From the IMG/VR virus record IMGVR_UViG_2537562173_000009: DNA of 4,664 nucleotides; one strand, given 5' to 3'. The notes beneath the pieces are model-generated. The model was not told where the DNA came from, did not search any database, and saw only the letters and a program-made list of their open reading frames with translations. The stretch is from a virus (lineage: Duplodnaviria; Heunggongvirae; Uroviricota; Caudoviricetes). The translations under genes were made by a program, and so were the position numbers. This document shows, in pieces, positions 1 to 4,083 of the stretch (positions within the stretch are counted from its first letter, which is position 1; each line of letters starts with the position of its first letter).

Positions 1-209
1 GGGCTGTGGCTGATTAAAACGGAGCTGCTGGAAACGCAGACCGTGGACTTCAGCGTGGGTGCAGAAGGGCTTCGCCATGTACCGGGCGATGTCATTGAAA
101 TCTGTGATGATGACTATGCGGGGATCAGCATCGGCGGGCGCGTGCTGGCGGTGAACAGCAAAAATGCGGGCGGTGAACAACCAGACGCGGACACTGACGC
201 TCGACCGTG
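1..209 (+). CDS. J: gpJ-like fragment A (frame 1, 5'-partial). Homology ends near 163; the tail '[15 protein letters not shown]' is out-of-frame read-through.
   Basis: Frame 1 is open from base 1 and reads 'GLWLIKTELLETQTVDFSVGAEGLRHVPGDVIEICDDDYAGISIGGRVLAVNSK', then nonsense to the TGA at 207-209. Confidence 0.6.
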
Positions 210-907
210 AAATCACGCTGCCATCCTCCGGCACCACGCTGATAAGCCTGGCTGACGGACAGGGGAATCCGGTCAGCGTGGAGGTCCAGTCCGTCACCGA
301 CGGCGTGAAGGTAAAAGTGAGCCGTGTTCCTGACGGCGTTGCAGAATACAGCGTGTGGGGGCTGAAGTTGCCAACGTTGCGCCAGCGCCTGTTCCGCTGT
401 GTGAGTATCCGTGAGAACGATGACGGCACGTATGCCATCACTGCCGTGCAGCATGTACCGGAAAAAGAGGCCATCGTGGATAACGGGGCGCACTTTGACG
501 GCGACCAGAGCGGCACGGTGAATGGTGTCACGCCGCCAGCGGTGCAGCACCTGACTGCCGAAGTCACCGCAGACAGCGGGGAATATCAGGTGCTGGCGCG
601 CTGGGACACGCCGAAGGTGGTGAAGGGGGTGAGCTTTATGCTTCGCCTGACCGTGGCAGCGGATGACGGCAGTGAGCGGCTGGTCAGCACGGCCCGGACG
701 ACGGAAACCACATACCGCTTCAGGCAACTGGCGCTGGGGAACTACAGGCTGACAGTCCGGGCGGTAAATGCGTGGGGGCAGCAGGGCGATCCGGCATCGG
801 TATCGTTCCGGATTGCCGCACCGGCAGCGCCGTCGCAGATTGAGCTGACACCGGGGTATTTTCAGATAACCGCCACGCCGTGTGGAGGCTGTTGGCCAGC
901 CGAGTGA
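164..907 (+). CDS. J: gpJ-like fragment B (frame 2). J-like sequence starts at about 170; the ATG at 164 is probably fortuitous.
   Basis: This is the 247-aa ORF from the track. From '[21 protein letters not shown]' to '[13 protein letters not shown]' it is collinear with the middle of lambda J. The last 8 codons ('CGGCWPAE*') are out-of-frame relative to the continuing J sequence. Confidence 0.6.
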
Positions 908-1964
908 TGATGCATCCGGCTATCTGAATTTTTTCAAAGGAGAGATAGGGAAAACCCATCTGGCTCAGGAGTTGTGGACGCAGATTGATAACGGTCAGCT
1001 TGCGACTGACCTGGCTGAAATCAGGACGTCAATTACGGGTGTCAGCAATGAAATCACGCAGACCGTCAATAAGAAACTGGAAGACCAGAGTGCAGCGATC
1101 CAGCAGATACAGAAGGTTCAGGTTGATACAAATAATAACCTGAACAGCATGTGGGCTGTGAAGCTGCAGCAGATGCAGGACGGACGCCTTTATATCGCGG
1201 GTATTGGTGCCGGTGTTGAGAATACTCCTGACGGTATGCAGAGTCAGGTGCTGCTGGCGGCGGACAGGATTGCGATGATTAATCCTGCGAATGGCAACAC
1301 AAAGCCGATGTTTGTTGGGCAGGGCGATCAGATATTCATGAACGAAGTGTTCCTGAAATATCTGACGGCTCCCACCATTACCAGCGGTGGCAATCCCCCA
1401 ACGTTTTCACTGACACCTGATGGTCGACTTTCTGCGAAAAATGCGGATATCAGCGGTAACGTGAACGCGAACTCCGGGACGCTCAACAACGTCACGATTA
1501 ATCAGAACTGTCGGATTCTGGGAAAACTGTCAGCTAACCAGATTGAAGGTGATATTGTCAAAACGGTGGGAAAAGCCTTTCCGAGAAATGGCAGTTATGC
1601 CAGCGGTACAATAACGGTCACTGTGTACGATGACCAGGCTTTTGACCGTCAGATAGTAGTCCCCCCCGTTCTGTTTCGTGGGGGTAAGCATGAAAACTTC
1701 AACAGCAACAACCAACAGTCATACTGGTATTCAACCTGTAAGCTGCAGGTACTGAAGAACGGACAGGAAATCTTTCAGCAACCCGCGACGGATGTCAGCA
1801 GGGTATTTTCATCAGTCATTGATATGCCTGCCGGACACGGCCATGTCACCCTGACTTTCAATGTTTCTTCATATGGTGCTAATAACTGGACGCCAACGAC
1901 CAGTATCAGCGACCTTCTTGTTGTTGTGATGAAGAAATCTACAGCCGGTATCAGTATCAGTTGA
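882..1964 (+). CDS. J: gpJ-like fragment C (frame 3), the C-terminal receptor-recognition part of J.
   Basis: This is the 360-aa ORF (GTG at 882). It contains conserved J motifs ('MWAVK', '[31 protein letters not shown]', '[46 protein letters not shown]', 'FDRQIVV', '[15 protein letters not shown]', 'AGISIS*'). The stop is TGA at 1962-1964. The last ~150 aa diverge from lambda J. Confidence 0.65.
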
Positions 1965-2022: not shown

Positions 2023-4083
2023 ATGGCAGTACAGATTTCAGGCGTGCTGAAAGACGGTGCAGGAAAACCGATACAGAACTGCACCATTCAGCTCAAAGCA
2101 AAACGTAACAGCACCACGGTTGTGGTGAACACGGTGGCCTCAGAAAATCCGGATGAAGCCGGACGTTACAGCATGGATGTCGAGTATGGCCAGTACAGCG
2201 TTATCCTGCTGGTTGAAGGTTTTCCGCCTTCACATGCCGGGGCCATCACCGTGTATGAGGATTCTAAGCCGGGGACATTGAATGATTTTCTGGGCGCTGC
2301 AACAGAAGATGATGTTCGTCCGGAGGCACTGTATCGTTTTGAAAAGATGGTGGAAGAGGTGGCACGCAACGCTGAAGCCGCCTCTCAGAGCGCAGCGGCA
2401 GCAAAGAAATCAGAAACAGCAGCGGCATCGTCCAGGAATGCGGCGAAAACATCAGAGACGAATGCAGGTAACAGCGCGAAAGCGGCAGCTTCTTCAAAAA
2501 CAGCCGCACAAAACGCAGCAACAGCGGCAGAACGTTCAGAGACAAATGCCCGTGCGTCAGAAGAAGCCTCCGCAGACAGTGAAGAGGCTTCCCGCCGTAA
2601 TGCAGAGTCAGCCGCTGAAAATGCCGGAGTCGCCACCACAAAAGCGCGGGAGGCCGCAGCAGACGCAACAAAGGCCGGGCAGAAAAAGGATGAGGCTCTG
2701 TCGGCAGCGACACGGGCTGAAAAGGCGGCAGACCGCGCAGAAGTCGCAGCGGAAGTGACTGCAGAGCCCTATGCGAATATAGTGCCGCCGCTGCCTGATG
2801 TGTGGATACCGTTTAACGATTCACTGGATATGATTGCGGGTTTTTCTCCGGGCTATAAAAAAATAGCTATTGGTGACGATGTGGTTCAGGTCGCCAGTGA
2901 TAAACAGGTTAATTTCAGTCGCGCATCAACGGCAACATATATCAACAAATCTGGCGAACTGAAAACGGCGGAAATTAATGAGCCGCGATTTGAGTGTGAT
3001 GGCCTGCTTATTGAGGGACAAAGAACGAACTACATGCTCAATTCGGAAAGTCCAGCCAGCTGGGGGAAGTCATCAAACATGGATGTGCCCGAAACCGGGA
3101 CAGATAGTTTTGGTTTTACTTATGGAAAGTTTGTCTGCAACGATTCTCTGGTTGGGCAAACTTCGGCTATTAATATGGCATCAATTGCTGCAACAAAGTC
3201 AGTTGATGTCTCAGGCGATAACAAGTACGTGACAACCTCATGCCGTTTTAAAACAGAACGACAGGTAAGGTTACGTATACGGTTTGATAAGTATGATGGT
3301 AGTGCAACAACTTTTCTTGGCGATGCGTACATTGATACGCAAACGCTTGAAATTAATATGACAGGTGGGGCTGCCGGCAGAATTACGGCACGAGTCAGGA
3401 AGGATAAGACCACAGGCTGGATTTTTGCAGAGGCAACGATTCAGGCAATTGATGGTGAGTTAAAAATAGGCTCTCAGATACAGTATTCTCCTGAGCGGGG
3501 TGGGGCAACAGTATCTGGTGACTATATTTATCTTGCCACCCCACAAGTAGAGAATGGGCCGTGTGTATCATCATTTATTATTTCAGGAGGCAGCGCAACG
3601 ACAAGAGCCAGTGATTTGGTTAGTATCCCCACCAGAAATAATCTTTATAAGTTACCATTTACTTTTTTACTTGAGATTCATAAAAACTGGGATATTGCAC
3701 CAAACGCCGCACCCCGCGTGTGGGATATAGCAGCAGCCAATACCGGGCAATCAGCAATTGCAGCAATCAACAGAGGTAGTGGTAAGTTATATATGAGTCT
3801 GTCAAACCCTTCAGGCTTGTATGTTAATAGCGCAGCGACAGATGTATTTGCAGAGAAAACCACATTTGGATGTATTGCAAAAGCTGATGGTCACTTTCAT
3901 GTGGTGACAAATGGTAAAGCGGTTAATGAAGTTTATTGTGAATATAATGGTGTGACCGCTGATAAAAATATCCGATTTGGAGGGCAGACGAATACTGGAG
4001 AACGACATCTGTTTGGCCATATTCGCAATTTCCGCATATGGCATAAAGAATTAAATGACAGGCAATTAAAAGAGGTCGTATGA
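2023..4083 (+). CDS. stf: Side tail fibre protein (lambda Stf family N-terminus, Ala/Ser-rich shaft, divergent C-terminal receptor-binding domain).
   Basis: It is a long ORF, open from GTG at 2017. The ATG at 2023 is the preferred start: it is preceded by GGAG (2014-2017) with a 5-nt spacer and gives 'MAVQISGVLKDGAGKPIQNCTIQLKAKRNSTTVVVNTVASENPDEAGRYSMDVEYGQYSVILLVEGFPPSHAGAITVYEDSKPGTLNDFL', which is near-identical in pattern to the lambda Stf N-terminus as I recall it. The low-complexity Ala/Ser/Thr/Glu shaft is typical of side tail fibres. The stop is TGA at 4081-4083. Confidence 0.9.
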   Translation: MAVQISGVLKDGAGKPIQNCTIQLKAKRNSTTVVVNTVASENPDEAGRYSMDVEYGQYSVILLVEGFPPSHAGAITVYEDSKPGTLNDFLGAATEDDVRPEALYRFEKMVEEVARNAEAASQSAAAAKKSETAAASSRNAAKTSETNAGNSAKAAASSKTAAQNAATAAERSETNARASEEASADSEEASRRNAESAAENAGVATTKAREAAADATKAGQKKDEALSAATRAEKAADRAEVAAEVTAEPYANIVPPLPDVWIPFNDSLDMIAGFSPGYKKIAIGDDVVQVASDKQVNFSRASTATYINKSGELKTAEINEPRFECDGLLIEGQRTNYMLNSESPASWGKSSNMDVPETGTDSFGFTYGKFVCNDSLVGQTSAINMASIAATKSVDVSGDNKYVTTSCRFKTERQVRLRIRFDKYDGSATTFLGDAYIDTQTLEINMTGGAAGRITARVRKDKTTGWIFAEATIQAIDGELKIGSQIQYSPERGGATVSGDYIYLATPQVENGPCVSSFIISGGSATTRASDLVSIPTRNNLYKLPFTFLLEIHKNWDIAPNAAPRVWDIAAANTGQSAIAAINRGSGKLYMSLSNPSGLYVNSAATDVFAEKTTFGCIAKADGHFHVVTNGKAVNEVYCEYNGVTADKNIRFGGQTNTGERHLFGHIRNFRIWHKELNDRQLKEVV
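2365..2760 (+). repeat. Low-complexity Ala/Ser/Glu/Thr-rich repetitive coding segment (fibre shaft) inside stf.
   Basis: The translation is 'RNAEAASQSAAAAKKSETAAASSRNAAKTSETNAGNSAKAAASSKTAAQNAATAAERSETNARASEEASADSEEASRRNAESAAENAGVATTKAREAAADATKAGQKKDEALSAATRAEKAADRAEVAAEV'. Short motifs recur (SETNA twice, AA(K/E)(T/R)SETNA), and the DNA is rich in gcagc/gcggc repeats. This generates spurious ORFs on both strands. Confidence 0.8.

Follow-up and report, generated by a model that had tools for sequence, protein, structure and literature searches.

A 22-nt insertion with a partial copy of its neighbouring bases breaks the reading frame of tail-tip gene J in a lambda-like prophage

The stretch of DNA analyzed here (4,664 nt, hereafter the window) covers the distal part of the tail module of a lambda-like prophage that, in E. 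coli relatives such as CFT073, clone D i2 and UTI89, sits beside the sitABCD operon. According to the CFT073 annotation, the counterpart of the window begins inside gpJ, which encodes the tail-tip attachment protein J. Genes for the tape measure, a minor tail protein, L, a K-like peptidase and I are annotated 5' of gpJ in CFT073, and a side-tail-fibre-like gene and two small ORFs lie 3' of it, followed by sitD and sitC on the opposite strand. Called genes revealed that this order is common to clone D i2, UTI89 and APEC O1. The orthologous loci present the lambda-like succession of tape measure, M, L, K, I, J and stf, within which the window starts inside J. In CFT073, by its annotation, and in L002-L004, by their called genes, the gene occupies the tail-module position typical of the lambda gpJ family, behind tape measure, M, L, K and I. 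Lambda itself has lom 3' of J, whereas the window carries a 688-aa stf-like fibre gene there. A name for this sit-adjacent lambda-like prophage was sought in the literature and nothing usable was found. The features of the window are collected in Table 1.

The first base of the window corresponds to J nt 1342, which is the first base of codon 448, and the window covers codons 448-1160 of a 1160-codon gpJ homologue. Its last base closes the stop codon of the second small ORF exactly. An in-frame start together with an end on a stop codon suggests that the boundaries of the window were derived from an annotation.

Table 1. Coordinates of the features located in the window.
Feature	Position	Strand	Description
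J, frame 1	1..210	+	Codons 448-499 correct, then 17 aberrant codons and TGA at 208-210 (translation compared with clone D i2 J)
Copy 1 of the 11-nt exact direct repeat, GGCGGTGAACA	147..157	+	Extends to the 15-nt block 143-157, TGCTGGCGGTGAACA
Filler, GCAAAAATGCG	158..168	+	No local template; contains ATG (164-166) in frame with downstream J
Copy 2 of the 11-nt repeat	169..179	+	Extends to the 15-nt block 165-179, TGCGGGCGGTGAACA, one mismatch against copy 1
22-nt insertion	158..179	+	One of 12 equivalent placements, 147-168 to 158-179; J codon ~496-500
J, frame-2 ORF (247 aa)	164..907	+	Starts at ATG; J residues ~497-733 correct, then 8 aberrant codons (CGGCWPAE) past the deletion junction and a stop
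Deletion junction	880..881	+	Exactly 200 nt, blunt, no microhomology; J nt 2200-2399, codons 734-800 (blastn and boundary sequences)
J, frame-3 ORF	882..1964	+	J residues 801-1160: tail-tip fibre and C-terminal receptor-binding domains
End of J	1964	+	
Fibre (stf-like) gene, 688 aa	2017-4083		
Small ORF, 92 aa	4080-4358		
Small ORF, 97 aa	4371-4664		

The intact J orthologue of clone D i2 is 1160 aa long and matches all six Pfam families of gpJ (FNIII-A_GpJ, Phage-tail_3, Ig_J, Ig_J_second, Phage_Tail_Tip and Ig_GpJ_C) far over their cut-offs. Through this orthologue the window can be assigned the lambda gpJ domain series, as outside its two indels it is the same gene, bar the substitutions at 1005 and 1031. 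The J DNA of the window can also be aligned to lambda J and its surroundings are lambda-like in synteny, but the gene is interrupted here by a gain of 22 nt and a loss of 200 nt, which make a full-length protein impossible. In place of the single intact ORF of the family, the two indels leave three frames with 67 codons missing. Therefore, J is a pseudogene that yields no normal full-length tail-tip protein, and it should be labelled in annotations as a pseudogene with two frame-breaking indels. Since both indels break J, a normal tail tip is beyond the reach of this prophage, which has probably lost the production of infectious particles.

The first of these indels lies where the Phage-tail_3 domain ends in the intact orthologue. 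An 11-nt string is present twice at this site, with starts 22 nt apart, and because of this repeat the insertion can be placed equally well at 12 positions. The insertion moves J from frame 1 to frame 2 at about codon 500, so that translation in the original frame terminates 17 codons further on. Removal of any 22-nt block starting between 147 and 158 leaves window positions 1-880 without a single difference from the J gene of CFT073 and of clone D i2; in other words, these relatives match the window base for base over this segment except for one 22-nt gap, with 0 differences from clone D i2 in the 858 flanking bases. The same gap, clean and 22 nt long, was found in 8 of the 8 aligned J alleles (CFT073, clone D i2, APEC O1, UTI89, lambda, PhiR40_1, Salmonella phage SPF_0923 and Kati). 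Additionally, the 40 best matches in E. coli and the 30 best in phages each cover 575-578 bases against 597-600 bases of the query. Every J gene examined carries a single copy of the string and none has both copies in frame. The earlier note, drawn up from the window without relatives at hand, had given the position and spacing of the repeat, its two reading frames, the 22 nt as the cause of the first frame change in J and the recovery of the J reading upon their deletion, and the orthologues bear it out on each of these points, the frame change being the first one seen within the window. The repeat by itself is only mildly unusual, because ~4% of first-order Markov simulations of the window contain a direct repeat that is exact over 11 nt or longer at a spacing of 4-30; it is the comparison with the orthologues that makes the observation solid.

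The insertion itself was not found elsewhere. Megablast of window 130-200 gave no contiguous match in 5,426 complete E. coli genomes, 197 of which match just the right-hand 36 nt of this query. An exact scan for the junction 32-mer and 19-mer returned nothing from GTDB representatives, IMG/VR and JGI metagenomes. Likewise, the products of the two private ORFs, in 7 start variants, are absent by exact look-up from a collection of 15 billion proteins, in which a control fragment free of the private changes (a C-terminal J fragment of 271 aa) is present in a cluster of 44 members.

The composition of the 22 nt decides how the repeat is to be read. The earlier note had taken it for a slipped-strand duplication, and it is true that 22 extra bases partly repeat their neighbours; the extra bases are also absent from the orthologues and shift the frame, as in slipped-strand tandem duplications. 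Such events, in contrast, give a perfect head-to-tail copy, while here only 11-15 of the 22 nt are copied and 7-11 nt of filler stand between the copies. Depending on its placement, the inserted block matches its presumed source at 15 of 22 positions and differs at seven. Specifically, the insertion consists of an 11-nt exact copy, or 15 nt if an imperfect one is allowed, and of 11 nt (or 7 nt) that copy nothing adjacent. When the comparison is made at a period of 22, one block of 14/15 identities emerges (143-157 against 165-179), an extension of the 11-nt repeat that takes in TGC, and the flanks of the block fall to chance level (1/7 and 3/7). With this block counted as the copy, the filler reduces to GCAAAAA (158-164), which separates the two 15-nt blocks. 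The two 22-nt units are identical at 17/22 positions, and the mismatches between them are gathered in one contiguous end instead of being scattered. The insertion thus duplicates a short stretch of local sequence (exactly over 11 nt, at 14/15 positions when extended), and 7 nt of filler stand between the duplicate and its source. A partial copy, an unmatched filler and flanks of 100% identity therefore indicate neither a clean slipped-strand duplication nor an old and diverged one, so that of the earlier claim the repetition stands, whereas a simple slipped-strand origin is not supported. It follows that the restoration of a frame by removing a repeat is not enough by itself to prove slipped-strand duplication. 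Still, the duplicated part is not a matter of chance, as one would not find in a random 22-mer a run of 11 bases identical to the sequence right beside it.

Concerning the source of the filler, shared k-mers were sought in the window and in 14 kb of flanking prophage and sit DNA, and nothing beyond 10-13-mers was found. The two candidates, a 13-mer (TGAACAGCAAAAA) in sitD ~4.5 kb downstream, which owes 6 nt to ordinary J sequence, and a 10-mer located farther on in J, were both rejected as too weak. Window 146-183 gave no match in blastn against all complete E. coli genomes (word size 11, E ≤ 10). The 22-mer formed by copy 1 and the filler (GGCGGTGAACAGCAAAAATGCG) has seven exact matches in genomes of Clostridia (L005-L011). 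These loci were discarded as a source of the insertion and regarded as coincidence, six of the seven encoding the common ABC-ATPase signature LSGGEQQKC and the seventh being read in another frame. A patch of recombination was considered as well. After GTGAACA, copy 1 continues with G, a base shared by lambda and most alleles, where it belongs to a Ser codon; copy 2 continues with A, the base of CFT073, where it belongs to an Asn codon. No allele continues with AAAAATGCG, however, and a Ser-type J allele was dismissed as donor, the G being treated as a 1-in-3 coincidence.

The insertion has company. Compared with clone D i2, its closest relative, the window shows exactly four differences, all of them in J and all within 875 nt: the 22-nt insertion, the 200-nt deletion at 880/881, and one C>A substitution each at 1005 and 1031. 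Over the remaining 3.6 kb, which take in the fibre gene and the two small ORFs, the window and clone D i2 are identical. The deletion lies 720 nt downstream of the insertion, removes most of the Ig_J_second domain and introduces the second frame shift in J. All of the best matches among complete E. coli genomes retain these 200 nt, and the k-mers of the deletion junction are absent from the contigs of IMG/VR and the JGI metagenomes. Both the length of the deletion and its start at J nt 2200 are round numbers, which is odd. The substitutions are 26 nt apart; the one at 1005 gives P842T and the one at 1031 is synonymous (Ser). None of the complete E. coli genomes carries both of them, and over window 940-1100 none reaches at least 99% identity, the best value being 159/161. 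In total, none of the four private changes was found in the 5,426 complete E. coli genomes. As in the decaying prophage pseudogenes of E. coli, a structural phage gene has here been inactivated by indels, next to an intact stf gene and intact small ORFs. Unlike in those pseudogenes, the lesions are private and no substitutions have accumulated in the rest of the region, so that any decay would be very recent.

The insertion is either ordinary gene decay or a sequence error in a structural gene of a prophage, and it has no function of its own. As its origin we infer a single complex error of replication or repair with template switching, to which we give a probability of about 0.55. In such an event the nascent strand would have dissociated after GTGAACA, gained a few bases that were untemplated or templated ectopically, and re-primed ~15 nt upstream. 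Complex filler insertions produced by template switching or break repair likewise join a short templated copy from nearby to bases of other origin, and here too there are substitutions nearby and a deletion in the same gene. The present case differs from them in that no template for the filler was found either nearby (14 kb of flanks) or in E. coli genomes. Against a complex error stands the fact that the insertion is known from this one sequence, its junctions and products being absent from the collections searched. Moreover, four private changes in 875 nt and a deletion that is blunt and exactly 200 nt long would also fit an origin that is not biological.

Under that second explanation, which we consider rather doubtful although it is the main rival, the insertion, the deletion and both substitutions would be mistakes made while a multi-copy gene was assembled or its consensus called, or else the result of editing the sequence. 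It agrees with the privacy of all four changes, with the absence of junction k-mers from the contig collections and of the products from 15 billion proteins among which the control fragment was present, and with the crowding of the changes into 875 nt of a 4.66-kb window that otherwise equals clone D i2. The exact length of the deletion, its lack of microhomology and its round start point in the same direction, and J, whose copies number 2 per genome in the median and 10 at most, is hard to assemble. However, a noisy assembly would be expected to show homopolymer or other small errors, and there are none elsewhere in the 4.6 kb. A de Bruijn mis-join needs shared k-mers at the junction of the deletion, where none exist. 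The two substitutions match no paralogous J allele, so chimerism between paralogues fails to explain them, and a random insertion would not copy 11-15 of the adjacent bases.

The remaining explanations are far less probable. A mobile element might have left a footprint through imprecise excision, in the form of an 11-bp target-site duplication (GGCGGTGAACA) around an 11-nt remnant (GCAAAAATGCG). Perfect 11-nt direct repeats do abut a foreign segment of 11 nt, target duplications of ~11 bp are typical of IS4-family elements, and the remnant starts with GCA and ends with TGC, bar one further G before the repeat, which makes an inverted pair of 3 nt. An inverted repeat of this size is trivial, though, and no element occupies the site in any relative. 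Excision of bacterial IS elements rarely leaves footprints so small and we know of no common E. coli IS terminus that matches the filler. Overall, we judge a footprint very unlikely. Equally slight are the odds that all four lesions stem from one episode of error-prone double-strand-break repair, with the insertion as an end-joining-like scar containing filler DNA; to our knowledge, such scars have rarely been documented in natural isolates of E. coli. If the lesions are real and joint in origin, they would be a modest case, from nature, of mutations clustered in association with a break. A 22-nt unit duplicated in tandem by classical strand slippage and diverged later by point mutation would explain the period of 22 nt and the 14/15 block in register, but we hold such a course to be highly improbable: seven of the 22 inserted bases would have changed, all at one end, against 0 differences in the flanking bases. 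Divergence after duplication is implausible because those 858 bases equal clone D i2, and no intermediate with a perfect duplication appeared in any collection searched.

The least credible reading, to which we give next to no weight, is that the insertion is functional, either as a programmed frameshift site or as a gene fission with restart at the ATG in the filler; a weak Shine-Dalgarno-like GGTGA at 150-154, 9 nt upstream of this in-frame ATG, would favour it, but the insertion is conserved in no orthologue, gpJ acts in lambda as one polypeptide, and the 200-nt deletion, which takes away most of an Ig-like domain, disrupts the restarted ORF once 239 correct codons have been read. Because of that deletion, the ATG cannot restore the C-terminal portion of J. 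No relative has the insertion or showed a variant copy number; the insertion is therefore neither a programmed frameshift nor a contingency repeat. Formally, the ATG at 164-166 makes the insertion split J into two overlapping ORFs, and its arrangement with GGTGA is probably a coincidence.

Further observations concern the genes 3' of J. Residues 3-133 of the 688-aa fibre protein match the N-terminal domain of prophage tail fibres strongly, and its C-terminus (562-683) gives a weak, sub-threshold match to Laminin_G_3 / concanavalin-like domains. The two small ORFs lying between the fibre gene and sitD match no Pfam family. CFT073, clone D i2 and UTI89 conserve both of them, and APEC O1 has the 92-aa ORF with a different continuation downstream of it. 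In CFT073, the same prophage bears a different lesion, a premature stop in the side-tail-fibre-like gene: codon 556 of stf (window 3682-3684; L001 9860-9862) is TAA there and AAA in the window, clone D i2, UTI89 and APEC O1, where the 688-aa ORF is intact. For many strains, RefSeq presents a split annotation of stf (an N-terminal-domain pseudogene, a head-spike-fibre-domain protein and a hypothetical protein), and UTI89 is annotated in this split form as well, despite its intact 688-aa ORF.
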